DNA of 64,000 bases from an uncultured Methylomirabilota bacterium (GCA_963705305.1 OY970067.1:2944001-3008000); one strand, 5' to 3'; positions 4,123 through 64,000 are shown, numbered from the stretch's first letter. The notes: generated by a model not told the origin, from the letters alone. Numbers and translations: made by a program.

Positions 4123-5993
4123 GTGAACACGACTTCCTTCTCGTCGGTCAGCTCCAAGGTGTGGAGCGTCTCCGGCGTCGGCAGTCCGTCGGGCGACCAG
4201 CCCCGGACCTCATAGTATTCGTCCAGCATCTTCTCGAACGCTTCGGGCGGGATGTTGGGCAGGTCCTCGCCCCGCTTCTGGAGGGTGAGGATGCGGTGAG
4301 GAAGCTGGTCGTCCTCGCGCGTCACGCCCAGCCGTGCATTGTAGAGCCGCTTCAGGGTGAAGATGCGGTCTCCCGCCTCCATCAGGTCTTCCCAGGTCCA
4401 CTTCCATCCCGTGATGAGGTTCAGGGCCTCGGTGACAGGCGTCGGACTCATGGCCCGCGCGTAGAATTTGCAGAGGCCGACCCCGTTGTAGACCGCCATC
4501 AGGCTGTGCATGCGGGCGGCCAGCAGGGCCTTCCCGTCGGTGACGCGGGGGCTCAGCTTGGCGTTGTAGCCGAACTCCGGCATGGGGACCCCGGTCTCCA
4601 CGATGAAGGGGAGCCCCTCCAGGTGGCAGGCGCCCCGCGCCCCGGTGGCGTAGTTCAACCCCATGGACCAGAAGGCCCGGGGATCGTGCATGGGAAACTC
4701 CAGGCCCTTCACCGTGACCGTAAGCTTCTCGGCCCCGCCCCCGATTTTTTTGGCCGCAGCCAGCGAACCGTCGGCCAACAGGTCCCCCAGGCCCTGGCGG
4801 TGCGCGATCTGCTCTACCAAGGTCAGGATGGCCTTGGCATCCCCCCAGGCGAGCTTCATCCCGCCGGTGTCCCGCTCACCGATGAGGCCCTGCTCGAAGG
4901 CCTCGATGGCGAAGGCGATGCTGTTCCCCGTGGAGATGGTATCGAGGCCGTAGCGGTTGCACAGCTCGTTGGCCCGGATGACGGAAGGCAGATCGTCGTT
5001 CAGCGACATGGCGCCGAACGCCCCCAGCGTCTCGTACTCGGGGTTGTGGCCGACGTTCATCCGGACCCCGTCGGGACCCTCCATCGTGACGTGTTGCCAG
5101 CAGTGGATGGGGCAGCCGGAGCAGGAGCTGGACTTGACCTCGTACTTCTGATGAATGGTCTTGCCGCTGATCTTGGCCGCGCCCTCCGGCCAGTGTCCTC
5201 CCCGGAAGTTCTGGATGGGGAGGCCGCCGCGCTCTTCGTGAACCTCGATGCCGCCGGAGGTGCCGTAGGTCGTAAAGAGGCCGAACTTGGGGGGCATCTC
5301 GACGGTCTTCTTGAAGGCCCAGCCCATGAGCCCACCCGGGTTGGCGACCGGCACGCCTCGGGTGCCGCGGACCACGACGGCCTTCAGGTTCTTGGCCCCC
5401 ATGACGGCGCCCAGGCCGGTGCGTCCGGCGGCACGGGCATGTTGGCCCTCCACCATGATGGAGGCGATCCGCACCAGGTTCTCGCCGGCCAGCCCGATGG
5501 CGGCCACCTTGGCCTTGGGATCCGTCTCTGCCAGCAAGAGATCGTTGGCGTCGTACGTGTCTTTTCCCCAGAGGTGCTCGGCGGGTCGGAGCTTGACGTG
5601 GTCGTCGCTGATCCAGAGATAGACCGGGCGCTTCGCCGCGCCCAGGATCACCAGGCCGTCGTAGCCGGTGAATCGGAACTCGGCGCCCCAGGTCCCGCCG
5701 ACGGTGGCCTCGCCCCAGATATTGGTGAGGGGAGAGCGGGAGATCACGGAGGTGCGTGTCCCCCCGGGGATGGTCGTCCCCGTGAACATCCCGGGCATGA
5801 AGATCAGCGGATTGCGGGGATGAAATGGGTCCAGCGGCGGGTTGCCCAGGTCCATGAGCAGCCGCGCTCCCAGGCCGCTTCCCATGAGGTACTTCTTGTA
5901 CAGGGCGTCCGGGAGCGTCCGTTTTTCTACCGTCCCGGAGGTGAGATCAACCAGGAGGATCTTGCCAGAATATCCCTTGCCTCGCATTGCCAT
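4119..5993 (-). CDS. Aldehyde:ferredoxin oxidoreductase (W/Mo-pterin AOR family)
   Basis: GYSGKILLVDL N-terminus, AAGRTGLGAVMGAKNLKA, CSGCPIHC, EYET, GLDTIS, GACH; start ATG 5993 or 5987. Confidence 0.93.
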   Translation of the reverse strand: MAMRGKGYSGKILLVDLTSGTVEKRTLPDALYKKYLMGSGLGARLLMDLGNPPLDPFHPRNPLIFMPGMFTGTTIPGGTRTSVISRSPLTNIWGEATVGGTWGAEFRFTGYDGLVILGAAKRPVYLWISDDHVKLRPAEHLWGKDTYDANDLLLAETDPKAKVAAIGLAGENLVRIASIMVEGQHARAAGRTGLGAVMGAKNLKAVVVRGTRGVPVANPGGLMGWAFKKTVEMPPKFGLFTTYGTSGGIEVHEERGGLPIQNFRGGHWPEGAAKISGKTIHQKYEVKSSSCSGCPIHCWQHVTMEGPDGVRMNVGHNPEYETLGAFGAMSLNDDLPSVIRANELCNRYGLDTISTGNSIAFAIEAFEQGLIGERDTGGMKLAWGDAKAILTLVEQIAHRQGLGDLLADGSLAAAKKIGGGAEKLTVTVKGLEFPMHDPRAFWSMGLNYATGARGACHLEGLPFIVETGVPMPEFGYNAKLSPRVTDGKALLAARMHSLMAVYNGVGLCKFYARAMSPTPVTEALNLITGWKWTWEDLMEAGDRIFTLKRLYNARLGVTREDDQLPHRILTLQKRGEDLPNIPPEAFEKMLDEYYEVRGWSPDGLPTPETLHTLELTDEKEVVFT

Positions 5994-6335
5994 CCTCGAA
6001 CATCCGCGGCCGATTCGTTGAGTCAGAATACGCCATAAGGCACCGTTATCATCCTGTATCAAGCCGGATGGTTCAAGAGAAAATTCAAAGGCCAGATTAT
6101 GCTTGTAAATATTTGTATTTTCACAGCTAGGTCGAATGGAGATACCAGATTGAAGCCACCAAATATGCTGGCATATTGGTGAGATTTCGCAGACGCAAGG
6201 CTGCGGCATGAGTGTCAAGATTCCTCTGCCGCCATTGGAGGTTGACGAGGCGGGGGTGAAAGAGTAAAAAGCCAACAATTCCAAAAGAAGCAATGCGCGC
6301 CGGCTGCCATCCTCGGCCGGGCGGCGGGATCGCAC

Positions 6336-7151
6336 ATGTCTGGGAAATACGTGCACGGTTATTCGCCGACGGAGGGCGGACGCCTCATGGATCAGGCGTC
6401 CACCCTGGCGGAGCTCTTGCACTCGGACACCGCCTACCCGGCGGGAAGCCTGGTGCTGGAGGCGGGCTGTGGCGTCGGCGCCCAGACCGTCACGCTGGCC
6501 GCTTCCAGCCCGCATGCTGCCTTCGTCTCCGTGGACATTTCGGCGGACTCGCTGGCGCAGGCAGAATCCCGGCTGCGACAGGCGGGGCTGGACAACGTCA
6601 CCTTCCGGCAGGCCGACATCTTTGCCCTGCCCTTCGATGCTGCCCACTTCGATCACGTCTTCATCTGCTTTGTCCTGGAGCACCTGGCAAGCTCCAAGCG
6701 CGCGCTGGCGGAGATGATCCGGGTCCTGAAGCCCGGCGGAACGCTGACCGTGATCGAGGGGGACCACGGCTCGGCCTACTTCCATCCCCAGAGCGACTTC
6801 GCCCGGAAAGCCATCCAGTGCCTGGTGGATCTCCAGCGCGACGCGGGCGGTGATGCGCTCATAGGGCGCCGGCTGTATCCGCTGCTGGTCCAGGCCGGGT
6901 TCCGTGAGGTTCGCGTGTCGCCGCGAATGGTCTACGCCGACGCCAGCCGGCCGGCGATGGTGGATGGCTTCATTCGCAAGACCTTCGCGGCCATGGTGGA
7001 GGGAGTGGGGCAGCAGGCTATCCGCCAGGGGTTGATGGACGCGGCCTCTTGGGCACGGGGGATTCAGGACCTGTACCGGACGGCGGAGAACGACGGGACC
7101 TTCTGCTATACGTTCTTCAAAGCTATTGCACGGCGTCCGGAGGGTGCGTGA
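6336..7151 (+). CDS. Class I SAM-dependent methyltransferase
   Basis: VLEAGCGVG motif I, FDHVF, RVLKPGG. Confidence 0.88.
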   Translation: MSGKYVHGYSPTEGGRLMDQASTLAELLHSDTAYPAGSLVLEAGCGVGAQTVTLAASSPHAAFVSVDISADSLAQAESRLRQAGLDNVTFRQADIFALPFDAAHFDHVFICFVLEHLASSKRALAEMIRVLKPGGTLTVIEGDHGSAYFHPQSDFARKAIQCLVDLQRDAGGDALIGRRLYPLLVQAGFREVRVSPRMVYADASRPAMVDGFIRKTFAAMVEGVGQQAIRQGLMDAASWARGIQDLYRTAENDGTFCYTFFKAIARRPEGA

Positions 7152-7391
7152 CCCCGTCGATCCGGGGGGTCACGCGACGCCCGAAGCCTCACAGGTACCG
7201 GAACCGGGGCCTTTCTGCCGCATAACTGCCCTGCCTTCTCGGCGATCTTTCGGTCAACCCACAGACTCAGCCCGATTTCTGCCGCATTTGCTTGAACAAA
7301 TGGAAAATATGTGCACAATGCCTCCTACGATCCCCGCAGGGACGGGGAGGGAGGCGGGTCCAGCTAACAACGAAAGGCGGCGAGGTGGCAC

Positions 7392-7967
7392 ATGGAAGAG
7401 AAGAACACGATTGGCGACAAGCTGAAGGCGGTGCGCGCATCCCGGAGCCTGAACCAGGATCAGCTGGCGGAGCGCGCCGGTCTCCGGCTCGAGGTCGTGA
7501 GCGGAATCGAGTCGGGAGAGTTGGTTCCGTCCCTGGCCCCCCTGATCCGGATCGCCCGGGCCCTGGGGGTGCGGCTTGGCACCTTCCTGGATGACCGGGA
7601 AAACGTAGGTCCCGTGCTGGTGCGGGCCGGGGAAAAGCGCAAGGTCATGCACGTCTCGGACAAGAACCATCCCGGGCACAGCGACCTCGATTTCTTCTCA
7701 CTGGCGGCCGACAAGGCGGGCCGTCACATGGAGCCCTTCCTCATCGATATCTATCCCTCCTCGGCGCAGGAGGTCAAGATGTCAACCCACGAGGGGGAGG
7801 AGTTCATCTACGTCGTCGCCGGCCAGGTGGAGATCACTTACGGGACGGAGGTCCATCGCCTCTCGCCCGGCGATTCGGTCTACTATGACAGCATCGTCGC
7901 CCACAGTGTGCATTGCGCGGGGAGTCAGCCGGCGCAGATCCTGGCTGTCGTGTACGCCCCGTTCTGA
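7392..7967 (+). CDS. XRE-family HTH plus cupin transcriptional regulator
   Basis: N-terminal HTH ([17 protein letters not shown]), cupin HEGEEFIYV and [19 protein letters not shown]. Confidence 0.9.
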
Positions 7968-7984
7968 TTCCGAGAGGAGGCCGC

Positions 7985-9637
7985 ATGGAGTACATCACAG
8001 AGACGCTCGGTCAGGTCCTGGAGGCGCAGGTTGCCCGCCATCCCGAGAAGGAGTTCATGGTCTACGCCGACCGGGACCTGCGCTTCACGTACGCGGAGTT
8101 CGACCGCCGGGTGAACTCCATGGCCAAAGGCCTGCTGGCCATCGGCCTGCGAAAGGGGGACCATCTCGGCATCTGGGCCACCAACGTTCCCGACTGGCTC
8201 ACGCTGCTCTTCGCCACAGCCAAAATCGGCGTCGTCGCGGTCACCGTGAACACCGCGTACCGGCTCCATGAGATCGACTATCTGGTAAAGCAGTCGGACA
8301 TCAAGGCCCTCTGCCTCGTTGACGGATTCCGCGACAGCGATTACGTGGCCATGATCAACGAGCTGGTGCCCGAGCTGAAATCTTGCGAGCGGGGCCGGCT
8401 GGTCAGCGCGCGCTTCCCCAATCTGAAGAGTGTGATCTTCGTCGGTCCCGAGAAGCACCGGGGAATGTACAACACCCAAGAGCTCTTGCTCCTGGGTGCC
8501 CACACGCCCGACGAGGCGGTGGCGCGGGCCTCGGCGGACCTCTCCTGCGACGAGGTGATCAACATGCAGTACACCTCGGGCACCACGGGCTTCCCGAAGG
8601 GCGTGATGCTCACGCACCATAACATCCTGAACAACGGGTTCCACATCGGGGAGCGGCAGAAGCTCACCGAGGCCGATCGCCTCTGCCTGTCCGTCCCCCT
8701 GTTCCACTGCTTCGGGCTGGTGCTGGGGGTCATGGCCGTCCTCACCCACGGGGCCACCCTGGTGATCCTGGAAAGCTTCGACCCGCTGCTGGCCCTGGCC
8801 TCCGTGCAGAAAGAGCGATGCACGGCACTTTACGGCGTGCCGACCATGTTCATCGCCGAGCTGAACCACCCCATGTTCAAGATGTTCGACCTCTCCACGT
8901 TGCGGACCGGCATCATGGCCGGCTCTCCCTGCCCGATGGAGATCATGAAGCGGGTGATCTCGGACATGCGCTGCCGCGACATCACCATCGCCTACGGTCT
9001 CACCGAGGGCTCGCCGGTGATGACCCAGACCTCCACCGATGACCCCATCGAGATGCGGGTCTCGACGGTGGGGCAGCGGCTACCGGGGATCGAGGTGCGG
9101 ATCGTGAATCCGGAGACCCACACGGAGGTGCCGCCGGGGACGCAGGGGGAGGTGGTCTGCCGGGGCTACAACGTGATGAAGGGCTACTACCATTTGCCCG
9201 AGGCCACCGCCCAGGCCATCGACGCGGACGGGTGGCTGCACTCCGGGGATCTGGGCACCATGGACGAGAACGGGTACTTCAAGATCACGGGCCGGATCAA
9301 GGACATGATCATCCGGGGCGGCGAGAACATCTCGCCTCGCGAGATCGAGGAGTTCCTCCTCCAGCTGGACGGCATCCGGGACATCCAGATCGCCGGGATC
9401 GCCAGTCCCAAGTACGGCGAGGAGGTCGGCGCCTTCATCATCAAGAGGGAGGGCGCCACGATCACCGAGGAGGACGTACGGGATTTCTGCCGGGGCCAGA
9501 TCGCCAATTTCAAGATCCCCCGCTACGTGTTCTTCGTGGACGGGTACCCGATGACGGCCAGCGGCAAGGTCCAGAAATACAAGCTCAGGGAGCTGGGCCT
9601 GGAGCTGCTCAAGGCGCAGGGGGTCGAGCCGGCCTAG
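7985..9637 (+). CDS. AMP-binding acyl-CoA synthetase
   Basis: [50 protein letters not shown]. Confidence 0.93.
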
Positions 9638-10113: not shown

Positions 10114-11255
10114 ATGCAGCACCTCAAAGCCGCCGGGGGGGTTGCTGTGTCAAGAACGTGGAAGCCGGAAACCGTCAACCTGCTGACGGTCTGCCTGGCC
10201 GGGCTCTTCGCTATTTTCATCATGCTGCGCTGCACGGCAGCAGCCTCGGCCGCAAGCGCCGCAGTACCCCAACCCCTGTTCAATGTCGGCTACCAGATTC
10301 TCGATCTCAAGTATCCAAAGGACGGACAGGTGCAGGCGCTCACCGTGGCCGTATGGTACCCGACCACGGCGCAGCCGAAACCGTACACCTACGCGGGGCC
10401 GACGACGCGCAGCGTCGCGGTCGGGGGGGGGCACCCGACGCCGGCAACAGCCCCTATCCTCTCCTGGTCTTTTCCCACGGCTATGGAGGAAGCGGCCTCA
10501 GCGCGGTGTTTTTCACGGAAGCCCTCGCCGCGCACGGCTGGGTCGTGGCCTGCCCGGATCATCACGACGAGTATTCGGCGGCCCGCATCCGGACCGGCCC
10601 GCAGAAGAACTTCGACCGCCTGGGCTTCCTGCGGGGCGCCAGGGAGATAACGAATTCGGGTCCCGGCGACCGAGGGAAGTACCTCTACCGACTGGACGAG
10701 ATGAGCCTTGTCCTGAACAGCATGCTGACCTCCGCCTCCTTCGGGAAACTCATCGACGGCGATCGAATAGCCGTCGGGGGTCACTCGCTGGGAGGATTCA
10801 CCGCACTGGGCTTGAGCGGAACCATTCCGGACCGGCGAGATCCCCGCATCAAGGCCGTCTTGTTGTTCTCGACAGGAGCCGGTGGATACCTGTTCAGGGA
10901 GGACGAGCTTGCGGGCGTGCGCATTCCATCCATGCTGTTCATGGGGGAAAGGGAAGAGCGCCAATCGCGCGGTTCCGGGACGATGGTGGAGCTTTCGACC
11001 AGGATTTTCGTGAAGGTATCGCCGCCGAAGTACTTCCTTGAAGTCAAAGGGGCCAGCCATTTCTCGTTCAACAACCGCTTTACGGACAACCGCATGGCGA
11101 GACTGCTGAGCGGCACCGAGGTGCAGTTTCGGGTGATTCGAAGATACTCGATTGCTTTCTTGGAGAAATATGTTGCCGGAAGGCAAGACTCCGGGCACGT
11201 GCTGGAGCACAGCGACCCAATGCTGACGCGGTATCTCGCGATACCCGGATCGTGA
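10114..11255 (+). pseudogene. Alpha/beta hydrolase (PAF-AH/dienelactone hydrolase-like), split by a frameshift in a G9 run
   Basis: N-half (signal-like segment, VAVWYP) is in the frame of ORF 10114; C-half (YPLLVFSHGYGG, GHSLGG, HFSF) is in the frame ending 11255; junction at G9 10423-10431. Confidence 0.75.
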
Positions 11256-11317
11256 ACACGCTCCAAGGCTCTCCGTGCCGGACATCGCAAAAATGTCGGG
11301 ATAACGGAGCGATCAGA

Positions 11318-11346
11318 AGTCCACTGAGTCAACAACGTCCCCCAAA
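11318..11346 (+). repeat. 29-bp repeat copy A (AGTCCACTGAGTCAACAACGTCCCCCAAA)
   Basis: 28/29 identical to 13726-13754; inverted copy at 13575-13601. Confidence 0.85.
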
Positions 11347-11418
11347 ACGAGGGAAATGGCTCGGTCTACGCGTACCTGAACTTCGCCTGTTGAAGAGACG
11401 CGGGAAATCTGATACACC

Positions 11419-12108
11419 ATGCTCATGAAACCTGACGACAAGCTTCGCGATTTGTCGATGCGCACGGGGAAGGCGGTCGCCCACTCTTGGAAGACTCGGA
11501 CAGGACAGCAAGATAGGCAGCGGAAGACCGGGAAGGCCGACCAGGGACTGCGCAGCGCCGTCACCGGCGGCGCGCAGATGGACGGATTCATCGACCTCTT
11601 CACGGAGTTGATAACGGCAGCCGGGATTTTTCCGTCCCCCAAAGAGTGGGACCTGCTCGTGGTGCGCGAGAAGACGCTCCTTGCCGCGATCGAGGCCAAG
11701 TCCCAGGTGGGTCCATCCTTTGGCAACAACTTCAACAACCGAACTGAGGAGGCGATCGGAAGCGCCCTTGACCTCTGGACCGCATACCGCGAACATGCCT
11801 ACCTGAGCAGCCCCCAGCCTTTCCTTGGCTATTTCTTCATGCTGGAAGACTGTGTCGCCTCCAATCGCCCGGTCAAGGTGCAGGAGCCGCATTTCAAAGT
11901 GTTTCCCGAATTCGTCGACGCCTCGTACATGCGCCGCTATGAAGTCTTCTGCCGCAAGCTCGTGCTGGAGCGGCATTACACGGCAGCGGCGTTCATCTCG
12001 TCCACGGCGTACGACGGGATTGGGGGACGCTTCTCGACGCCGGCGGACGACCTGTCCGTCGAGCGTTTCGCGAAGACACTCGCGGCCCACTTGGCCGCCT
12101 TTGCGTGA
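11419..12108 (+). CDS. PaeR7I/XhoI-family type II restriction endonuclease, probably degenerate
   Basis: KADQG, MDGF, WDLLV, EAKSQVGPSFGNNFNNRTEEAIG signature; segment between MDGF and WDLLV looks shortened. Confidence 0.8.
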   Translation: MLMKPDDKLRDLSMRTGKAVAHSWKTRTGQQDRQRKTGKADQGLRSAVTGGAQMDGFIDLFTELITAAGIFPSPKEWDLLVVREKTLLAAIEAKSQVGPSFGNNFNNRTEEAIGSALDLWTAYREHAYLSSPQPFLGYFFMLEDCVASNRPVKVQEPHFKVFPEFVDASYMRRYEVFCRKLVLERHYTAAAFISSTAYDGIGGRFSTPADDLSVERFAKTLAAHLAAFA

Positions 12109-12112
12109 ACCC

Positions 12113-13020
12113 ATGGTCACTACGATTCACAGGCTGATCAACGGCGACGCGAGGGAGCTCGCGTACCTGGATGATGCTTCGGTTCATCTTGTCGTCACGT
12201 CTCCCCCGTATTGGAATCTGAAGCGCTACAACGAGAACCCGGACCAGCTCGCCATATTCAGGACTACGAGGCGTTCCTGTTCGAGCTGGAAAAGGTCTGG
12301 CGGCATGTCTACAGGATCCTCGTGCCGGGTGGGCGACTCGTGTGTGTGGTGGGAGACGTCTGCGTCGCGCGCCGCGACTTCGGACGCCACCTCGTCTTTC
12401 CCCTCCACGCCGACATCTGTGTCATGTGTCGACGGATCGGATTCGACAACCTGAACCCCATCATCTGGCACAAGATCGCCAACGCCTCCTACGAAGTGGA
12501 AAACGGCTCCAAGTTTCTCGGAAAGCCCTACGAGCCGAATGCCATCGTGAAGAACGATATGGAGTTTATCCTGATGCAGCGAAAGCCCGGGGGCTACAGG
12601 AAACCAACGAACGCGCAACGAGAGGCAAGCAAGATTGCCAAAGACGACTTTGACCGGTGGTTTCAACAGATCTGGACCATCACCGGAGCCTCAACCAAAG
12701 ACTACCCAGCCCCCTTCCCGCTGGAACTTGCCACACGCCTGGTCCGCATGTTCTCCTTCACCGAGGACACGGTCCTGGACCCGTTCAGCGGGTCAGGCAC
12801 GACGATGGTCGCCGCCCTGCGCCACGGACGAAACAGCATTGGTGTTGAGATCGATCCGGAATACTGCCGCATGACCGCCCGGTATCTGAAAGCCGAGACG
12901 GCCGACCTCTTCACGAAAGCGGAACTTCGCTTTGAGAAAGCACCTACAGAAACCACCGCGTTCGTGAGAGAAGAGCGCGCCCTGTACGAGGTCCGGCCGG
13001 CCAGAAAGAAGCTTGAATAG
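12113..13020 (+). pseudogene. Beta-class N4/N6 DNA methyltransferase, frameshifted near 12251
   Basis: VVTSPPY (motif IV) in the frame from ATG 12113; HIQDYE onward, including DPFSGSGT (motif I), in another frame; a 1-nt loss at ctc-gc-cat explains the shift. Confidence 0.85.
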
Positions 13021-13088
13021 TCAAACAAAACTGTGTCGGTCGAAAAGCTTGCCACGGCATTCCGGCGCCGCTAAGTTGGGCGTTGGGC
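13020..13088 (+). other. Possible degenerate integron attC site
   Basis: GTCAAAC at the MTase stop and GCCGCTAAGTTGGGCGTTGGGC ending in GTTRRRY, about 20 nt before the next ATG; inner pairing poor. Confidence 0.35.
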
Positions 13089-13110
13089 GGGCGCGCCCTG
13101 CGGAGGCTTT

Positions 13111-13569
13111 ATGGTAGTCGTTTCACTGCGCGAGATCATCGAGGAGCTGGAGCTACAGAGCGAGGAGGCGGTTATCTATCTGAACCGTGTGACGGGCGAG
13201 ATTGTCCGAGTCTCGGAGGAGGAAAGCCGGCTGGTCGAAAACGACGAGCCGGACGACAGCCTACCGGAGTGGTAGCGGGAGATGCTCCCGAAAATCCGTG
13301 AGGCCCTCGAGTCCGATGACTTCCTCCAGTTGCCCAATCGTTTCGAGATCAATGAGTGGAGCATCATGGAGCGCTTTGCGGAGAGCCAAGAGAACCGCGA
13401 GCATCGAGAGGCCCTTCGCGAGGCGATTCACGGAAAGGGCGCGTTCCGGCGCTTTCGCGAAACGCTTCGTGACCTGGACCTCGAGGACGCATGGTACCGA
13501 TTTCGCGAGCTGGCGCTCGAGGAGATCGCCAAGGACTGGCTGAATGCCAACGGCATCAGCTACCGGTAG
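13111..13569 (+). pseudogene. UPF0158 family protein with in-frame TAG
   Basis: ATG 13111 with GGAGG RBS: MVVVSLREIIEELELQSEE..YLNRVTGEIV..LPEW*REMLP..HGKGAFRRFRE..W; TAG at 13273-13275. Confidence 0.8.
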
Positions 13570-13574
13570 TAATT

Positions 13575-13754
13575 TTTGTGGGACGTTGCTGACTGAGTGG
13601 AACAACTCCCAGTAGCATCCCACCCGCTTCGGGGGATCAAGCGCGTGGAGGCATATCCCGGCAGACCCCGCTGACGTTTTCCCGCCGCACGTAATAACTG
13701 CTGTCGCCTCTGGCGACGAAACTACAGTCCAATGAGTCAACAACGTCCCCCAAA
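13575..13754. repeat. 180-bp MITE/REP-like unit bounded by 27-bp imperfect inverted repeats
   Basis: TTTGTGGGACGTTGCTGACTGAGTGGA (13575-13601) versus TCCAATGAGTCAACAACGTCCCCCAAA (13728-13754), 23/27 complementary. Confidence 0.65.
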
Positions 13755-55842: not shown

Positions 55843-57362
55843 CCCTAATCTCCGGCTAAGAAGTTGAGGGGGATCGCGAATCACGCAGCGGCCCGCAGTG
55901 CGCGCGGCCCGCGGGGTTGGCATCGGCCTTGCTTGGTTTCACCCAGTGGGTGCAAACACCACAAGGAGGAGAGCGATGCCCGACACCTCGCCCCGGTTGC
56001 CGTTCGAGATCGATGACGCGATCGACCCCACGCTGGTCACGGGCCGGGCCGGGGTCCCGCTCGTGATCGAGCTGTTCCGCCAGCTCGGGGTGGCCCAGGC
56101 CGTCGACACCCACGTTGCGGTCAAGCAGCGGCAGCGCGGATTACCCCCCTCGCAGCTCGTGGAGAGTCTCGTCGCGTTGTGGACGAGCGGCGGGGACCGC
56201 TGCCAGGACCTCACGACGCTCCGGGAGGATCAGGCCCTGGCCACGCTGCTCGGCTACCCCCTGCCGGCCGCGACCACGGTCCGGGACTTCCTCGAGGCCT
56301 TCCACGTGGAGGACGGGCCGCTCTGGGTGGCCGGGCCCGCGGCCACGGTCCCCCTGGAGTCCGCCCCCTTGGCGGGCCTCGGACAGGCGAACCGGACGCT
56401 GGTCGCGGGCGTCCAGCGCGGGGCCCGGGCGGCGACGGCCACCCTGGATGTGGACGCGACGCTCGTCGAGAGCCACAAGGACGCGGCGACCGTGGCCTAC
56501 GACGGGACCCGGGGCTACCAGCCCGTCGTGGTCCTCTGGGCCGAGCACGATGTCATCGTGCACGACCAGTTCCGCGATGGCCAGGTGCCCGCCGGGTGCG
56601 GCAACGTGCGCGTCCTCGAACAGGCGGTGGCCAACTTGCCCCAGGGCGTGGACCGCATCTCCCTGCGGGCCGACAGCGCCCTCTACGAGACGGAGGTCCT
56701 CCGCTGGTGCGAGGAGAAGAAAATCGCCTACGCGATTAGCGCCGATATGTCCGCGCAGCTCCAGGCCGAGATCCGGCGCCTCCCCGCGGCCGCCTGGCAG
56801 CTCGAGCGGGAGGAGCCCGAGGCGATCCGGGCCTGGGCCGAAGTCCCCTACGTCCCCGAGGATGGCGATCACCGGAAGGCGCGGCCGTGCGTTCGCCGCT
56901 ACCTCGCGGTGCGTATCCAGCGACGCCAGGGGAGCCTCTTCGCCGACGGGAGTAGCGTGCAGTACTTCGCCGTGGTCACCAATCGGCCGGAGGATGGGCT
57001 CACGATCCTCCGGTGGCACCGGGAGAAAGCAGGGACCATCGAGCACACCCATCACGTCCTCAAGACCGAGCTGGCGGCCGCCGCGCTGCCCAGTGGGAAG
57101 TTCGGGGCGAACGCCGCCTGGTTCCGGCTGAACGTGCTCACCTACAACCTGCTCACCGCGCTCAAGCGGTTGACCTTACCCGGAGATCTCCGGACCGCCC
57201 GGCCGAAGCGTCTCCGGTTCCTGCTGTTCAACACCGTCGGGAAGGTCGTCGCGCATGCCCGACGGACGCTCTTGCGGCTCTCGGGCGCCCTGCAGCACGC
57301 CTTGCTCGTCCGGGCGCGGCGCAAGATCGCCCGGCTGGCCACCGCTTAGCCGGAGATTAGGG
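55843..57362 (+). mobile_element. IS1380-family element, copy 2 (1520 bp, apparently identical to copy 1)
   Basis: Same 18-bp IRs; TSD AAGCG (55838-42, 57363-67); identical ORF translations. Confidence 0.93.
55976..57349 (+). CDS. IS1380-family DDE transposase
   Basis: Same protein as 33792-35165. Confidence 0.92.
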   Translation: MPDTSPRLPFEIDDAIDPTLVTGRAGVPLVIELFRQLGVAQAVDTHVAVKQRQRGLPPSQLVESLVALWTSGGDRCQDLTTLREDQALATLLGYPLPAATTVRDFLEAFHVEDGPLWVAGPAATVPLESAPLAGLGQANRTLVAGVQRGARAATATLDVDATLVESHKDAATVAYDGTRGYQPVVVLWAEHDVIVHDQFRDGQVPAGCGNVRVLEQAVANLPQGVDRISLRADSALYETEVLRWCEEKKIAYAISADMSAQLQAEIRRLPAAAWQLEREEPEAIRAWAEVPYVPEDGDHRKARPCVRRYLAVRIQRRQGSLFADGSSVQYFAVVTNRPEDGLTILRWHREKAGTIEHTHHVLKTELAAAALPSGKFGANAAWFRLNVLTYNLLTALKRLTLPGDLRTARPKRLRFLLFNTVGKVVAHARRTLLRLSGALQHALLVRARRKIARLATA

Positions 57363-57718: not shown

Positions 57719-58636
57719 ATGGGTGATCGACGGCAGGTCCGGGTGCGGGTCCCGGCTACGGCGGCGAACCTCGGCGCAGGGTTCGATGTGCTGGGGATCG
57801 CCCTGGGCCTGTACAACGAGATCGAGGTGGAGATTGAGGGCACCGGGCTGGCCCTGCAGGTTGAGGGGGAGGGGGCCCAGCGGCTGCAGAGCCTGGCGGG
57901 ACGGAATCTCACCGTTCGGGCCGTCTCGACGACCCTCGAGCGGCTGGGGCGTCCGGCCGCCGGCCTGCGGGTGCACATGCGAAATGCGATCCCCCTGAGT
58001 CGGGGCCTGGGCAGCAGCGCCGCCGCCGCGCTGGGCGGCGTGGCGGCGGCGGCAGCGCTCGCGGGGGCGTCCCTGTCCCCGGAGGATCTGCTCGGCCTGG
58101 CGCTGCCCTTCGAAGGGCACCCCGACAACATCACTCCGGCCTTGCTGGGTGGCCTGACGGTGGCCGCCCTGGAAGCGGGGCGGGTGCGGTGTCTCAAGCT
58201 TCCCATCCCCGCCGACGTGAAGGCGATCGCCGTCGTGCCCGACTTTCATCTGCCCACGGTCAAGGCGCGGAAAGTCCTGCCCAGAATGGTGCCCCGCGAG
58301 GATGCGGTGTTCAACGTGGGCCGGGTCGCCCTTTTCCTGGGCGCGATGCAGACCGGCCGCCTGGAGCTTTTGCGCGAGGCCGTACGTGACCGCCTGCATC
58401 AACCCTATCGTGCACCGCTCATTCCCGGCATGGAGGAGGTATTGGCGGAAGGCGAGCGCGCCGGGGCGCTGGCGTGCTTCCTGAGCGGCGCCGGCCCCAC
58501 GCTGTTGGCCCTGGTCGCGGGGGACGAGCAGGAGGTGGGGGCCCGGATGGCGGCCTGCTGGAGGGCGCGGGCCAATATCTCGGCCCGGGCGGAGGTTCTC
58601 TCCATCGACCGGGCGGGACTGCAGGTGGACGGCTAG
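57719..58636 (+). CDS. thrB: Homoserine kinase
   Basis: VPATAANLGAGFD, PLSRGLGSSA, EGHPDN, LHQPYR, SGAGPT; GGAGG RBS. Confidence 0.94.
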   Translation: MGDRRQVRVRVPATAANLGAGFDVLGIALGLYNEIEVEIEGTGLALQVEGEGAQRLQSLAGRNLTVRAVSTTLERLGRPAAGLRVHMRNAIPLSRGLGSSAAAALGGVAAAAALAGASLSPEDLLGLALPFEGHPDNITPALLGGLTVAALEAGRVRCLKLPIPADVKAIAVVPDFHLPTVKARKVLPRMVPREDAVFNVGRVALFLGAMQTGRLELLREAVRDRLHQPYRAPLIPGMEEVLAEGERAGALACFLSGAGPTLLALVAGDEQEVGARMAACWRARANISARAEVLSIDRAGLQVDG

Positions 58637-58654
58637 GGCCGGTCGAGACGGGGT

Positions 58655-60128
58655 CTACGGGGCCACCGGAAGATGAACCGTGAAGGCTGTTCCCACACCC
58701 ACCTCGCTCCGCACGTCGATGGTCCCCTTGTGGTCCTCCACGATCCGGTGGGCGATGGCCATGCCGAGACCGAGCCCTTTCTCCTTGGTGGTGTAGAACG
58801 GATCGAAGATCCGCGACAGACGCTCGGGCGGGATACCCTGCCCCGTGTCGGAGATGGTCACACAGACGGCCGGCTCCGGGCGCGTGCCCGCCGGGCGGGA
58901 CACGGCGAACGTCATGGCGGGCACCGATTGCGTCGACAGCTTGAGGTCGCCCCCATTCGGCATGGCCTGCACGGCATTCGACACGAGGTTGCTGAAGCAG
59001 CGGTGGAGGCGCTTGCGATCCACCATCCCGTAGGGCAGATCGGGGTCGAATTCCCGAATGATCTTGATGCCCTGGTTCGTCGCCTGGGTTTCAAACAACT
59101 CCAGGATCTGCGAGAGGATCTCATTCAGGTTCACCGGCTCGAGCTGCACGTTCATCGGCCGTGCCAGCTCCATCATCTCTTCGATGACGGCCTGGACGCG
59201 CTCCAGCTCCCGCGGGACCACCCGGTCGAACTTCTCCCGGACGCTGGGGTCATCATGGTGCATGGACATCAGCTGAGAGAAGATCAGGATCGAGGTGAGG
59301 GGGTTCCGGATATCGTGAGCGATGCCGGCCGCCATCGTCCCCAGGGCGGCCAACCGGTCGGCTCGACGCAGGCGGTCCTCCAGCTCGCGCACGTGGGAGA
59401 GCTGGCGGCTCATCTCGTTGAAGGCGGCCGAGAGCTGGCCGAGCTCGTCGTGGGAATGCACCTCAATCTGCTGGTTGAAATCGCCGCGACCGACGGCGGC
59501 CACGCCCTGGGTGAGGGCCCGAAGAGGCTTGGTAATTCGTTCCGCCAGGACCACGGAACTTAGGCTGGAGAGAAGGACCGCCAAGAGGCCGAAGGCAACG
59601 ATCTGCCATCCGGTCCGTGTGATCTGTTTGTTCATGCCCTCCAGGGACACGCCGATGCGGACCGTTCCCCACCGTTGCGCAGAACCCTCGATCATGACCG
59701 GGACCGCCACATCGTATACGGTCTCGCTATGGGCGCCCGGGATGCTGCGCTGGCGGATCAGCGGTTTGTCCCCAGCCGCCGGCATCTCCTGGTAGTCCTG
59801 GAGAAGGTCCTTTTGGCTCAAGACATTCCGGACGCTGCTCGCGGCAACGTGCCCCTCCTTGTCCAAGACGACGGCGTATACGACGTTCAGCGCTTCTGGT
59901 AGCAACGGCTAGGCTCTGCTCCACTCCCACGTAATTGTATGTGACGAGAGAGTTAGCGCTGGCTTGGGCCAGGCCGCTGGCCAGGATAAGGGCTCGCTTT
60001 CTCACCTCCTCGACAATAGCATTCCGCTGTTCCCTTTGCGCCACGACAGCTGCGCTGCCCACGAGCAACACTACGAGCAGGTTGATGAACAAGATGAGCT
60101 TCGTTCGGATGGGGAGATGGTTGATCAT
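58655..60128 (-). CDS. Membrane sensor histidine kinase (TM-periplasmic domain-TM-HAMP-HisKA-HATPase), frameshifted near 59900
   Basis: N-part MINHLPIRTKL..TM1 in ORF 59727-60128; remainder (TM2, HAMP DELGQL..FN, AHDIRNPL, DTGQGI, GLGLG) in ORF 58655-59905. Confidence 0.88.
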
Positions 60129-60154
60129 GGCGGAACCGCGCCCGTAGGGTGAGC

Positions 60155-61804
60155 CTACTTCTCCTTGTTCCGATCGAACCAGATCCGTTTCATGGGGATA
60201 TAAGGGTCTCCCAGCGCGCTCACCTCGATCCCCCTCACGTAGGGCTGGAAAATCCGCTCGTAGGAATAATAGCTCAGGACTATGAGTGGTGCCAGGTTCA
60301 TAATCTCCCGCTCTGCTTCCTGATAGAGAAGAAGCTTCCTCTGGGTGTCGCTCTCGAAACGGGCCCGCTGCAAGAGGGAGTCGACGGTGCGATTGTGGAG
60401 CTGCGTGAAATTGTCGGAGCTTCGAGAGTCGAACAGCTGTCCCAGGAACGTTTCGGGATCCGGCGTGTCAGCGTACCAACTGTACCGGAAGATCGGCAGC
60501 TTTCCCGCGTAGACCCCGGCATGGTATTCGGGCCAGTTTGTGTTGTAATGGATCTCTGCGTGAATTCCCACGGCAGCCAAGTACTTGATGATGGTCTGGT
60601 GCTCGGCCACAGCCTCGTCGTTCTTCCGCGCCGACCAAATATGAATGACCGGCAGGCCCTTTCCGCCCGGGTAGCCGGCAGCGGCCAAGAGGTCGGCTGA
60701 TTTTTTGGGATCGTAAGGATAGCCGACGAGATTTGGATCATAGCCGTAGGTGCCGGGCGGAAGAATCCCAGCAGCAGGGAGGTACTGGTCGTCATAGATC
60801 TCGTGCATGAGCCTGCGGCGGTCGATCGCGTAATTGATCGCTTGGCGAACCCGCGGATCGTCGAGGGGTTTCGTGGTGGTGTTGATCCCCAAGAAGGAGA
60901 TACCAAGAATGGGGCGACGGATGAACTGGTACCTTCGATCATTAAGCAGTTGCGTGCGCATTCGTGCTGGAATGCCTGAGTCCTCGAGATTCCCGCGCTC
61001 AAACTCTTCGAACATTTTGTCGAGGTTTTCGCCGGTGAAGATCCTGTACTCCAGCCGGTTGAGCTTCGGGGGCCCCTCGAAATAATCCCGATTGGCCGAT
61101 AGGACAATCTCCTTGTTCCGGACCCATCTGACAAACTTGAAGGGTCCTGTGCCCACGGGCTCCTGCCCAAAACGATCGCCCAAGCTTTTTACCACCTCTT
61201 GCGGGACGACCTTCGCGAAGCCGACAGCCAGCGAAGCGACGAAGGGCGACTGAGACTCTGTCAGAGTGATCCGAAGGGTTAGCGGATCGAGAGCCTCCAG
61301 GCCCTCCACACGGCTGGCGCGTCCCTCAGCGAACTCCCTGGCTCCTTTGATTTTCATGAAAAGGGTGGCGCCTGCGGATTTGGTTGCGGGATCCACGATG
61401 CGGGTGAAAGAGTATACGAAGTCCTGCGCGGTCACGTCCCGCCCGTTGTGGAATTTCACCCCCTTCTTTAGCTTGAAGGTCCACACCAATCCGTCGCGCG
61501 AGGCTGTCCATGTCTCGGCGATGGCAGGCTTTATGCCGAGAGCACCGTCGAATTGAACGAGCCCGTCGAAGAGTTGGTTGGCAATGGTACGACCGTAGAT
61601 GTCGTTGGGGCGAGCGGGATCCAGGGTTACCGGATCAGTCGCCAACGGACGACGGTAGGTGTCACCTTGGTGCTCGTCTCCGGACCGGACGAATGCCTCC
61701 CCACCCACGGCAGGGCAGGGAGGTACCCCTAAGGCGGCGACAAACGCCAACAAGAAGGCGATCTTCCAGCGCCGGAAGTCACACCACGATGATCTAGGAA
61801 CCAC
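60155..61804 (-). CDS. Family 5 (OppA/DppA-like) extracellular solute-binding protein
   Basis: DPVTLDP, LFDGLV, GVKFHNG, PVGTGPF, VRQAINYAID, signal-like N-terminus; start approximate. Confidence 0.92.
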   Translation of the reverse strand: MVPRSSWCDFRRWKIAFLLAFVAALGVPPCPAVGGEAFVRSGDEHQGDTYRRPLATDPVTLDPARPNDIYGRTIANQLFDGLVQFDGALGIKPAIAETWTASRDGLVWTFKLKKGVKFHNGRDVTAQDFVYSFTRIVDPATKSAGATLFMKIKGAREFAEGRASRVEGLEALDPLTLRITLTESQSPFVASLAVGFAKVVPQEVVKSLGDRFGQEPVGTGPFKFVRWVRNKEIVLSANRDYFEGPPKLNRLEYRIFTGENLDKMFEEFERGNLEDSGIPARMRTQLLNDRRYQFIRRPILGISFLGINTTTKPLDDPRVRQAINYAIDRRRLMHEIYDDQYLPAAGILPPGTYGYDPNLVGYPYDPKKSADLLAAAGYPGGKGLPVIHIWSARKNDEAVAEHQTIIKYLAAVGIHAEIHYNTNWPEYHAGVYAGKLPIFRYSWYADTPDPETFLGQLFDSRSSDNFTQLHNRTVDSLLQRARFESDTQRKLLLYQEAEREIMNLAPLIVLSYYSYERIFQPYVRGIEVSALGDPYIPMKRIWFDRNKEK

Positions 61805-62552
61805 CGATCATTCCCTCCCTGCAAAGCGAATACGCGACAAGCGCCAGGACATCATGCACACCTATGCGTACCGGGGCACCGATCATGCGAGCGGTGGGTG
61901 AAATGTCCGTCGTGGCCGCGGCAGGGAATCCATCGTAAGCCTGAGTCTGCGACCTTGTCACAACCTCCTCGCTACTACCGCCGTGCACCTGCGAAGCCAG
62001 CAGGGGTCATGGCGGACACTTCTTCGGACACACTCTGACAACTAATAAAAGGTTGTCAAGATAAATTCACGGGGGTTGAACGCATCTGAACTGATTACAT
62101 TGTGACAGGGAGGAAACAGGGGGGACCCAATTCCTCGCCGGCGCCTCAGTCAGATGGTGGGCGCGCGCGTCCTGCGGTTCGGAATCTCGAAGTGATGAGC
62201 GAGCCACGGATGGCGAGAAAGCCGAGCGGGAAGGGTAGACGGCAGAAACAGTAGCCGGAGTTGCTTGGCCGGCTTCATTCTTGGGGAAACCCCACTTGGT
62301 TCTTCAGGGGCACTCGCCCGCCCCCGGCGTCAAAGGGGACGACAACTCGAACCGCCGAAGGGGGGCGGAATGCAGAGCGGAGCCCTTGAAGATAAGGTGT
62401 CCGCTCAAGTCTAGCCTTTCGTCCATGGACCAGTTGGCGTCGAGGCTGTTGTAGCGTTGGCGCAAGCATCCGACCGGGAGGTCGGAGAGTTGACTGGACT
62501 GCTGGCTGGTAGGCCGCCGGAGAACGAGGTATTTTTCGTGCGCACTAAACAC

Positions 62553-62583
62553 AAAAAGGGGATGAGGCTCACGCCTCATCCCC
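62553..62583 (-). terminator. Rho-independent terminator of the small-peptide gene
   Basis: Perfect 11-bp stem GGGGATGAGGC / GCCTCATCCCC, GTGA loop, then TTTTT on the minus strand, 36 nt after the stop. Confidence 0.88.
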
Positions 62584-62619
62584 GGAAGTGTCGAGTATGC
62601 TGATGTGAACTCGGTCAGG

Positions 62620-62742
62620 CTACATGCCCCCTTCGGCAAAACCGGTGCGGCTGAACACCTGGGTATTGGACTGCACTTCCATCGCCGGAACGATCGCGAG
62701 GAGGCCGATCACCACCAGCACCAGGACGATGATCTTCTTCAT
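62620..62742 (-). CDS. 40-aa secreted peptide precursor MKKIIVLVLVVIGLLAIVPAMEVQSNTQVFSRTGFAEGGM (not in ORF track)
   Basis: AGGAG RBS 8 nt before ATG; MKK plus hydrophobic signal; own promoter and terminator. Confidence 0.85.
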   Translation of the reverse strand: MKKIIVLVLVVIGLLAIVPAMEVQSNTQVFSRTGFAEGGM

Positions 62743-62833
62743 GACGGTTTCTCCTTTTGTTCGATTTGAGATTTCCAATAAGTCCATCTTGACTCAGTTT
62801 TCGGCGTTTCGCTGTTCTCTGGGCCGGAAGTAA

Positions 62834-62849
62834 AGCAGGGCGTATGCCA
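62834..62849 (-). promoter_or_regulatory. Sigma54 -24/-12 promoter of the peptide gene
   Basis: Minus strand TGGCATACGCCCTGCT (GG-N10-GC). Confidence 0.75.
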
Positions 62850-62937
62850 TAGCAAAGCAAAAGAGGCGGGAGGTTCGGAAATTCCTGATCAATAAAGGAG
62901 TTAACCCTTTATGGAGTAGGCTAGTGCGGAATACGTG

Positions 62938-62957
62938 TTGCCTAAATTTTTAGGCAA
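62938..62957. promoter_or_regulatory. Candidate enhancer (UAS) palindrome
   Basis: Perfect TTGCCTAAA-N2-TTTAGGCAA about 90-110 nt upstream of the -24 box. Confidence 0.55.
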
Positions 62958-63082
62958 GTAATTGTGACAGGATCAAGGATGTATTGAGAAAAACGCTCTA
63001 ACATTCTTTTCTGAAAGGACTTATCGCAACCTTAGATTTTTTGTGCAATGTGCATAAGGAATTGAGCGACGGTGGGTTTGGC

Positions 63083-64000
63083 CTAAGGGGTGGGAACATG
63101 CTGGCGGGATTCGATACCGAGACGTTGGAGCTTCCAGAGCAGGGTGTTTCGATGCAAGCCGAGGACGCGGGCGGCCTCGCTTTGGTTCCACTGAACCTTC
63201 TCCAGGATGCTGAGGATGTATTGCCGCTCGAAGTGATTCCTGGCCTCGCGCAGGCTGAGCCCATTCTTCTGGGTCCGCTCGATCACGTCGTGGCCCAGAA
63301 TGGAGAGGTCCAGGGGGAGCTCTCGCAGAGAGATGGTCTCGCTCTGCGCCAGGGCCACCGCCCGCTCGATGACATTCTCCAGCTCGCGGACGTTGCCGGG
63401 CCAGTCGTATTGGTAGAGGGCCGCCGTGGCCCCGGCGGAAAAACCCCGGACGTGGCGATTGAATTCCCGGTTGTATTTGGCGATGAAGTGCTCGACCAGG
63501 AGCGGGATGTCGTCCCGGCGATGGCGCAGCGGGGGCAGGGTGATGGGGATGACATTCAACCGGTAGTACAGATCCTCCCGGAAGCTCCCCTCCTCCACGG
63601 CCTTCTTCAGGTCCCGGTTGGTGGCGGCGATGACCCGGACGTCGATCTTGATGGTCCGGGTCCCCCCCACCCGCTCGATCTCCCGCTCCTGGAGGGCGCG
63701 GAGGATCTTCGCCTGGAGGTCCAGGCGCATGGAGCCCACCTCGTCCAGGAACAGGCTCCCCCCGGTGGCGAGCTCGAACTTCCCCACCTTGGTGGCGATG
63801 GCCCCGGTGAAGGCCCCCTTCTCATGGCCGAACAGCTCCGACTCCAGGAGCTCGGAGGGGATGGCGGCGCAGTTGACGGCGACGAACAGCCGCTGGGCGC
63901 GGTGGCTCTGCTGGTGGATGGCGCGCGCCAGCACCTCTTTGCCGGTGCCGCTCTCGCCGCTGAGCAGGATCGTGGCGTTGTTGTCGGCGATACGGGAGAT
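63083..64000 (-). CDS. Sigma54-dependent NtrC-type activator (5'-truncated by window edge)
   Basis: GESGTGKE (frame open to the edge), [25 protein letters not shown], Fis [11 protein letters not shown]. Confidence 0.95.

Follow-up and report, generated by a model that had tools for sequence, protein, structure and literature searches.

A conserved peptide gene under a sigma54-type promoter beside a binding protein-histidine kinase pair in Methylomirabilota, and its possible part in a feedback circuit

Rokubacteria/NC10 are abundant uncultured bacteria of soils and sediments. Gene-encoded peptide signalling is textbook knowledge for Bacillota; to our knowledge, it is almost unknown in diderm bacteria. 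Kinases and chemoreceptors that depend on binding proteins are well known, and the LuxP-LuxQ-LuxU-LuxO pathway of Vibrio serves autoinducer-2 (AI-2) quorum sensing with the involvement of sigma54. For binding proteins of family 5, DppA-Tap, AibA-TlpB and CBP-ChiS are listed in the review PMC8050422 as examples of a pairing with kinases or chemoreceptors, none of which is known to use a gene-encoded peptide. A small protein acting on a kinase is exemplified by MgrB, a membrane protein of 47 aa that, as described in PMC8404706, belongs to the PhoQ/PhoP regulon and exerts negative feedback by inhibiting PhoQ. In this study, a stretch of 64,000 nt (hereafter the window) from the genome of a Methylomirabilota (NC10/Rokubacteria) bacterium, assembled as one contig of 5.65 Mb, was analyzed for a possible peptide-sensing circuit at positions 58655–64000. 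A preliminary description had claimed four co-oriented minus-strand genes there, and all four were confirmed by open reading frame (ORF) and domain reading. In the order of transcription, they encode an NtrC-type activator, a 40-aa peptide, a family-5 binding protein and a histidine kinase. The resulting peptide-sensor cassette is real, conserved and undescribed.

The 40-aa peptide gene was located at 62620..62742 (−), with its ATG at 62742, its stop codon at 62620–62622 and an AAGGAG ribosome-binding site in front of it. When 10 orthologues were compared with the window ORF, the differences at codon positions 1, 2 and 3 amounted to 80:21:159. The gene is followed by an intrinsic terminator with an 11-bp stem and a T run (62558..62583, −), and the hairpin was found in 6/6 aligned loci, namely the window and five close orthologues. 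A sigma54-type −24/−12 promoter, TGGCATACGCCCTGCT, lies upstream at 62834..62849 (−), 107 nt before the peptide ATG, and reads TGGCAT-N5-CTGCT from 62849 to 62834. Its TGGCA and TGCT columns were invariant in 11/11 aligned upstream regions, and the ribosome-binding site was kept in all 11. Outside this group, the −24/−12 element was present in 2/2 loci of family f5 as TGGCATCC(A/G)CCTTGCT, and in the remaining families TGGC-N8-TTGC(T/C) occurred 76–96 nt upstream of the ATG (17 of 19 rows, corresponding to 15 of 16 distinct loci), with the background of this pattern being 0.046 per 200 nt. Because the small ORF has been conserved, its changes falling mainly on third codon positions, and the promoter is conserved as well, the four-gene arrangement is, on these comparative grounds, more than chance.

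Further upstream, two blocks were recognized as candidate enhancer sites. The proximal one is a perfect palindrome, TGCCTAAATTTTTAGGCA (62939..62956, either strand), approximately 105 nt upstream of the −24 element, a candidate upstream activating sequence supported by orthologue conservation and by its uniqueness in the genome; in the alignment of 11 upstream regions, the orthologues keep it as TGCCCAA-N4-TTGGGCA. The distal block (TGCA.A.TGCACAA..., 63030..63054, −) emerged from the same alignment and forms a TGCACAA-N4-TTGTG(C)A palindrome in the orthologues, with a degenerate right half in the window. The two blocks share the form TGC(A/C)CAA-N4-TTG(G/T)GCA, and the palindromic sites are conserved in 11 close loci. 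Within the 5.65 Mb, TGCCTAAATTTTTAGGCA is the sole TGCNNAA-N4-TTNNGCA site with complementary inner bases, and six genome sites show just the outer pattern, with a sigma54-like promoter nearby at this one alone. When the 121 sigma54-like promoters of the genome were scored for enhancers, the peptide promoter reached 14/14, the next one 12 and seven others 11; the pattern, a strict model, was derived from this locus, so that the top rank is given by construction. The genome also encodes rpoN (DNA-binding domain, 208 bits). With its −24/−12 element, the presence of rpoN and the enhancer sites, the peptide promoter is predicted to belong to the sigma54-dependent class.

The gene for the presumptive regulator of this promoter begins beyond the window. 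The part inside it (63083..64000, −) encodes the Sigma54_activat, AAA_lid_14 and HTH_8 domains by Pfam, and the ORF continues to window-equivalent position 64489 when read from the genome. The full activator (63083–64489) comprises 468 aa, with Response_reg at residues 13–121, Sigma54_activat at 150–316, AAA_lid_14, and HTH_8 at 420–456, and GAFTGA was seen in its translation. Thus, the REC domain that the preliminary description had expected beyond position 64000 is present, and by its REC-AAA+-HTH domains the activator is assigned to the full NtrC-type response regulators. It scored below every NCBIfam equivalog cut-off, with AtoC (491 bits vs 714) and NtrC (460 vs 559) as the best matches. 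From the motifs and their conservation, it is well supported that this activator would drive the peptide gene. The genome carries approximately 30 NtrC-type regulators in all. The AAA+ core of the activator (63560–63886) shares 327 identical nt with a paralogous NtrC-type regulator 425 kb away (~2581219), the two regions being 90% identical across 541 nt; the identical stretch appears to have arisen recently by gene conversion between paralogous enhancer-binding proteins, if it is not an artefact of the assembly.

The conservation of the cassette was determined from 20 loci fetched around binding-protein homologues of 41 related genomes, 14 of which contained an orthologue (48–81% identity). 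The kinase followed the binding protein in 14/14 orthologue loci (13 in full, one cut by a contig end), and the activator was upstream in 10/14, the other four being three contig ends and one IS-type (insertion sequence) transposase. The peptide gene was found between the activator and the binding protein in 12/14, as the preliminary description had anticipated for homologous loci; tblastn detected 10 of them, and two divergent copies were recognized by reading the gap. The two loci without it comprised a contig ending inside the binding-protein gene and one with an IS upstream. No cassette neighbours were observed at the six other loci, where the binding protein was 39–41% identical or a 64% identical paralogue. 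Within the genus, the peptide and the binding-protein orthologue were both present in 12 genomes and both unfound in six (completeness 68–94%), and the two discordant genomes are explained by an IS insertion and a contig end. In one genus member (L041 of genome G004, 1–490), the binding protein-kinase pair is intact, and the place of activator and peptide in front of it is taken by a DDE/IS630-like transposase fragment.

Across the phylum, 79 of 251 genomes (two of the 79 being unpublished) and 33 of 104 high-quality genomes gave a match to the peptide profile at E ≤ 0.01. By family, matches were obtained in 12/20 genomes of f1, 3/6 of f5, 1/1 of f2, 60/159 of f9, 1/1 of f11 and 1/1 of f12, and none in f4 (15 genomes), f7 (20) or f10 (21). 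Of the best 30 peptide loci, 25 had both the activator and the binding-protein orthologue adjoining, five had one of them and ended with the contig, and none had neither; without the locus from an unpublished genome (L076), 24 of 29 had both neighbours. Judged by these neighbours, even weak matches of the profile are real. The order of activator, peptide, binding protein and kinase was kept in 8/8 longer loci from four other families (f5, f9 and f12 among them), and the flanking genes were not conserved beyond the genus. A contig scan with the peptide alignment, in which the hydrophobic N-terminus served as the pattern, returned, among the matches listed, two true loci in metagenome-assembled genomes of Candidatus Methylomirabilota and two chance ones in Bacteroidota. 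Taken by its synteny, the cassette is a self-contained and vertically conserved signalling unit of Methylomirabilota.

The product of the peptide gene has a characteristic layout, consisting of a short basic N-terminus (KK), a hydrophobic segment of approximately 18 residues that differs between clades, a P-x-x-E motif and a tail. The tail is conserved, approximately 20 aa long, acidic and Gly-rich, with the pattern S-T-Q-V-F-x-x-(I/V)-G-x-A-(D/E)-G-G-G-G-x, and its last residue is often D, E, W, F or Y. Among 28 sequences, M1, L15, P19, E22, T27, G34 and A36 were invariant, and S26 and G39 nearly so. The length varies from 40 to 46 aa across the family, and the motif is kept between families at 33–48% identity. 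Three genomes contain tandem copies, two in G013 and three each in G005 and G010; in both genomes checked (G013 and G005), the copies were identical in DNA, each with its own ribosome-binding site, under a single promoter. In G010 (C28:11758–14023; completeness 76%), the three copies stand beside a binding-protein homologue of 41% identity with six in-frame stops, and the locus may be a decaying cassette or a product of poor assembly. A metagenomic variant of 88 aa (P0174) has one hydrophobic N-terminus followed by two tail-like modules (AEGGGGG twice) and is reminiscent of multi-core precursor peptides.

The peptide family is large and unnamed. At least 1576 clusters were found at E ≤ 0.01 among 8000 candidates scored, and 72 representatives at 50% identity had E ≤ 0.001, among which at least two long repetitive proteins are false positives. 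The source names of the homologues were Rokubacteria, NC10 and Methylomirabilota, plus one Anaerolineales label, and all annotations were "hypothetical" or evident mislabels (ComGC, YxeA, PilX). The peptide belongs to no Pfam or NCBIfam family, with two chance matches only (E 0.05–0.08), and the ESM Atlas returned unnamed clusters (0.81–0.85) and a PapR cluster at 0.77, which is under the evidence level. A precursor of a bacteriocin or of a ribosomally synthesized and post-translationally modified peptide was rejected as the leading reading: the tail is anionic, and no conserved maturation, immunity or export genes were found nearby.

The binding protein (60155..61804, −) was identified from PF00496 (Pfam, E 4e-90), structure matches and an N-terminal export signal as a periplasmic solute-binding protein of the DppA/OppA group of family 5. 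Its nearest solved structure is 8upi, the binding protein of a peptide ATP-binding cassette (ABC) transporter (E 6e-72), followed by HbpA, DppA (E 3e-51), OppA, MppA and YliB/GsiB; binders of nickel, opines and agrocinopine matched far more weakly. The NCBIfam ranking was headed by DppA, OppA and GsiB, all far under their cut-offs. An Asp aligned to Asp408 of E. coli DppA, which we take to be the residue that holds the amino terminus of the ligand, was present in 14/14 orthologues. This residue fits a peptide-like ligand with a free amino group and does not identify the ligand. With PF00496, the export signal and the aligned Asp, the protein is placed, as far as such features allow, among the peptide binders of family 5 (cluster C). 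Genes for a partner ABC permease or ATPase were neither adjacent in the window nor present in the flanks of three other loci scanned, and the protein may work as an orphan by analogy with binding proteins of the sensor type.

The histidine kinase (58655..60128, −) starts 26 nt past the stop codon of the binding protein and consists of TM1, a periplasmic sCache_3_2 domain, TM2, HAMP, HisKA and HATPase_c, as read by Pfam from two frames. In the assembly it is split into the frames 59727–60128 and 58655–59905 by one extra base at 59886. This base was absent from 8/8 orthologues aligned and from a 251-nt contig of the public run X1 that is otherwise identical (a single contig, with a depth of ~3), and the orthologous kinases are intact, with 486–493 aa and the same four domains. 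X1 was the one public run found to contain part of the stretch, as DNA contigs over 14 of 30 bins, and no RNA run was listed for it. The frameshift is probably an assembly error, or else a strain variant, rather than a property of the system; the assembly may hold other single-base indel errors of this kind. In another family (L087 of G249, 10498–13651), a PAS domain is added to the cassette's kinase, after which a REC-HisKA-HATPase hybrid protein is encoded; this suggests that the phosphorelay is extended in that case.

These components can be joined into a circuit. The binding protein and the kinase would be made from their own sigma70-type promoter, as its motif indicates. Once phosphorylated, the activator would bind the palindromic enhancer sites, which lie immediately downstream of the activator gene, and fire the sigma54 promoter, a step for which motifs and synteny argue strongly. 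The sole product of this promoter would be the peptide of 40–46 aa, in one to three tandem copies. Its N-terminal hydrophobic segment would take it through Sec, leaving the conserved tail exposed outside the cytoplasm, where the tail or a shorter C-terminal fragment might be bound by the orphan DppA/OppA-type protein, a step to which the co-fold lends weak support. The loaded binding protein might then dock on the Cache domain of the kinase and raise the phosphorylation of the activator. The outcome would be a positive autoinduction loop, operating between cells as quorum sensing or only in the producer's own periplasm. That the exported peptide loads the binding protein and thereby activates the kinase, and hence the activator, is our tentative preference, held at somewhat short of even confidence.

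Of the wiring proposed in the preliminary description, the part leading from the activator through the sigma54 promoter to the peptide, together with the co-inheritance of the genes, has been borne out by comparative genomics; for capture and sensing, the proposal still draws on a weak co-fold signal and on the logic of the arrangement. The co-fold of the binding protein with the peptide was performed with the mature binding protein (14-row alignment) and the full peptide (28-row alignment) and gave a score of 0.38 (runs 0.38, 0.37 and 0.49), compared with 0.01 for the best of three controls. Contact agreement between the runs was at least 57%, and the partner's predicted local distance difference test (pLDDT) value was at least 37. 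The mark for a pass was reached by 116 of 157 solved complexes and by two of 215 mismatched pairs; at scores of 0.60 or under were only 18 of the 157 solved complexes, yet both of the mismatches that passed. The result lends weak support; because many complexes of OppA/DppA with peptides have been solved, the pass may reflect likeness to, or memory of, these complexes.

Several further observations weigh against a loop closed by the peptide. The residue opposite Arg355 of DppA is Arg in the window's subgroup and is not conserved outside the genus, and it did not clearly track the C-terminus of the peptide. Signal-peptidase sites were not found at one aligned position across clades; by our reading, the −3/−1 rule would place cleavage between VPA and ME in the genus and between IES and G in the large family. 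Because no single cleavage site fits all clades, the peptide may stay anchored in the membrane. No protease, exporter or maturation enzyme was conserved in the cassette or the scanned flanks. Moreover, none of the other promoters among the 121 sigma54-like ones had a strong enhancer site by the strict model, which would leave a pure loop without any further output. Porins of the outer membrane are not expected to admit a peptide of 2 kDa. Since the whole tail would face this barrier, it is less plausible that the tail diffuses freely than that it is processed to a short fragment or that the loop is confined to the periplasm. Finally, adjacent genes for a binding protein and a kinase are not always functionally linked, as stated in PMC11113362.

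The extracellular form of the feedback would require more steps. The Sec-exported pro-peptide of 40–46 aa would be trimmed to a short acidic oligoglycine C-terminal fragment, leave the cell, be captured by the binding protein docked on the Cache kinase and switch on its own sigma54 promoter. We consider this full sequence of events fairly unlikely. The N-terminus of the peptide is of the Sec type and lacks a double-glycine leader, and no AgrB/ComAB-like processing or export gene was found in the cassette or its flanks, which sets it apart from Agr- and Com-type systems. If such a pheromone exists, it would be the first case of peptide quorum sensing through a binding protein and a kinase, as well as the first for a diderm phylum that is known from metagenomes alone.

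The best-surviving alternative is that the binding protein and the kinase sense an external cue, for example muropeptides, glutathione-like ligands or short peptides from the environment, and that the peptide is an effector with an extracellular or envelope role to which its own sensor is blind. The group to which the binding protein belongs takes di- and oligopeptides, murein tripeptide, glutathione, haem or AI-2 as ligands, according to the structure names and PMC8050422. A paralogous binding protein with 64% identity (L034 of G013, 5206–8016) is followed by a dCache/sCache protein with neither peptide gene nor activator, an example of a binding protein paired with a Cache sensor where the peptide is missing. 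The enhancer at the peptide promoter alone is also what would be expected of an output. However, the peptide gene was never found apart from the sensor genes, either in the 30 loci examined or in 12/12 readable gaps, the anionic Gly-rich 20-mer has no obvious effector activity, and the co-fold, weak as it is (0.38 vs 0.01), points the other way. This explanation is regarded as doubtful, although it deserves serious consideration.

Membrane anchoring leads to another explanation, in which the peptide resembles MgrB in function and stays uncleaved as a single-pass peptide of the inner membrane (N-terminus in, tail out), modulating the kinase directly, probably as negative feedback, with the binding protein sensing some other ligand. 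Its size of 40–46 aa, the KK, the hydrophobic stretch of ~18 residues and the invariant Pro19 and Glu22 at the predicted membrane boundary would suit such a protein, as would the lack of a clade-wide AxA cleavage site and the probable transcription of the peptide by the system's own regulator. Nevertheless, between clades, the hydrophobic segment shows the variability of a signal peptide, with most invariant positions in the tail; two or three identical tandem copies are more fitting for a product that is secreted or consumed than for a membrane partner in fixed stoichiometry; and there is no sequence relation to MgrB. We judge this explanation to be unlikely. As for the sigma54 promoter driving a non-coding RNA or reading through into the binding protein-kinase operon, the small size of the ORF and its lack of a Pfam/NCBIfam match would permit it, but the third-position bias, the strong ribosome-binding site in 11/11 loci, the protein-level motif shared between families and by more than a thousand predicted protein clusters, the terminator separating the ORF from the binding protein and the lack of an Rfam match render it very improbable.

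The region between the peptide and the binding protein differs in the window from that in other genomes. The gap measures 816 bp, compared with 165–312 bp in 12 other loci, because an insertion of approximately 440 bp (62091..62545, no strand assigned), recognized by gap comparison and alignment in this locus only, lies between the terminator and the binding-protein promoter. The insertion was absent from five close aligned loci, is present as a single copy in the genome and contains no convincing ORF; no Rfam match at E ≤ 1 was obtained in 58000–64000. The sigma70-like promoter candidate of the binding protein-kinase operon (62031..62059, −) was defined by motif only, with a conserved TTGACA and a weak −10 hexamer in the window. 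A TTGACA(A/T)C block precedes the binding-protein gene in 6/6 aligned loci (the window and five close orthologues); as a sigma70 regular expression matched before this gene in 5/13 loci, the TTGACA claim is confined to the aligned subgroup. Around the cassette, uvrC is divergent and upstream of the activator gene, and on the kinase side, the neighbouring gene is convergent and encodes a thrB-like GHMP kinase. Beyond this gene, ~1.3 kb past the kinase end of the cassette, a DDE transposase (PF13701, E 3e-39) is encoded at 55898–57349 (+).

With its four genes, a single promoter and a single enhancer, the conserved cassette is small and complete, and it can thus be rebuilt in a laboratory host and tested with synthetic peptide. 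In this way, whether an uncultured phylum engages in self-signalling or cell-cell signalling can be put to a direct test. Should the peptide prove to be only an output or a membrane modulator, an unannotated small-protein family of more than 1500 clusters, all labelled hypothetical, would still be new, as would a sigma54 regulon possibly limited to one peptide gene and a pair of a family-5 binding protein and a kinase.

Among the known systems, LuxPQ-LuxO resembles the cassette in combining a periplasmic binding protein with a membrane kinase and in ending at an NtrC-type sigma54 activator. In contrast to the cassette, its signal is a small molecule made by LuxS, LuxP is of a different family, LuxQ is a hybrid kinase acting via LuxU, and LuxO drives small RNAs rather than the signal gene. 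Moreover, the activator of the cassette is not an orthologue of LuxO, because it scored 376 bits against the LuxO model, the cut-off of which is 800. AioX-AioS-AioR likewise brings together an orphan binding protein, a kinase and an NtrC-type activator; according to PMC8050422, its ligand is arsenite, its binding protein is of the phosphonate family and its target is an enzyme operon. The AioX-AioS-AioR system is also sigma54-dependent. PghKR, described as a CBM9 kinase with no binding protein (10.1101/2023.05.05.539549), is unrelated.

Closer in the sensor are CBP-ChiS of Vibrio cholerae and DppA-Tap of E. coli, both as described in PMC8050422. In the former, a PF00496 protein is encoded beside, and controls, a kinase with a Cache-like periplasmic domain; unlike the cassette, the ligand is a chitin disaccharide, CBP has a second role with an ABC transporter, and the system as given there lacks both a sigma54 activator and a peptide gene. 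In the latter, a DppA-type protein passes a peptide signal to a membrane receptor, but the receptor is a chemoreceptor, the signals are dietary dipeptides and DppA also transports. From the side of the peptide, MgrB-PhoQ is similar in that a small single-pass peptide belongs to the regulon of the two-component system on which it may act, and differs in its unrelated sequence, its lack of a binding-protein partner and its sigma70/PhoP dependence. PapR/PlcR and Phr/Rap with Opp, from Bacillus, share with the cassette a Sec pro-peptide of ~40–48 aa, an active C-terminal part and recognition by the OppA family. There, however, the peptide is imported and received by a cytoplasmic RRNPP protein, whereas the cassette has no RRNPP protein, places an orphan binding protein by a kinase and belongs to a diderm of another phylum. 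The preliminary description had not recognized the architecture as a described system, in agreement with which no description of the cassette or of the peptide family was found in the full-text literature, supplementary files aside. The cassette can be classed as a two-component system in which a binding protein acts as co-sensor and which is tied to a peptide of its own, and it stands outside any named quorum-sensing family.

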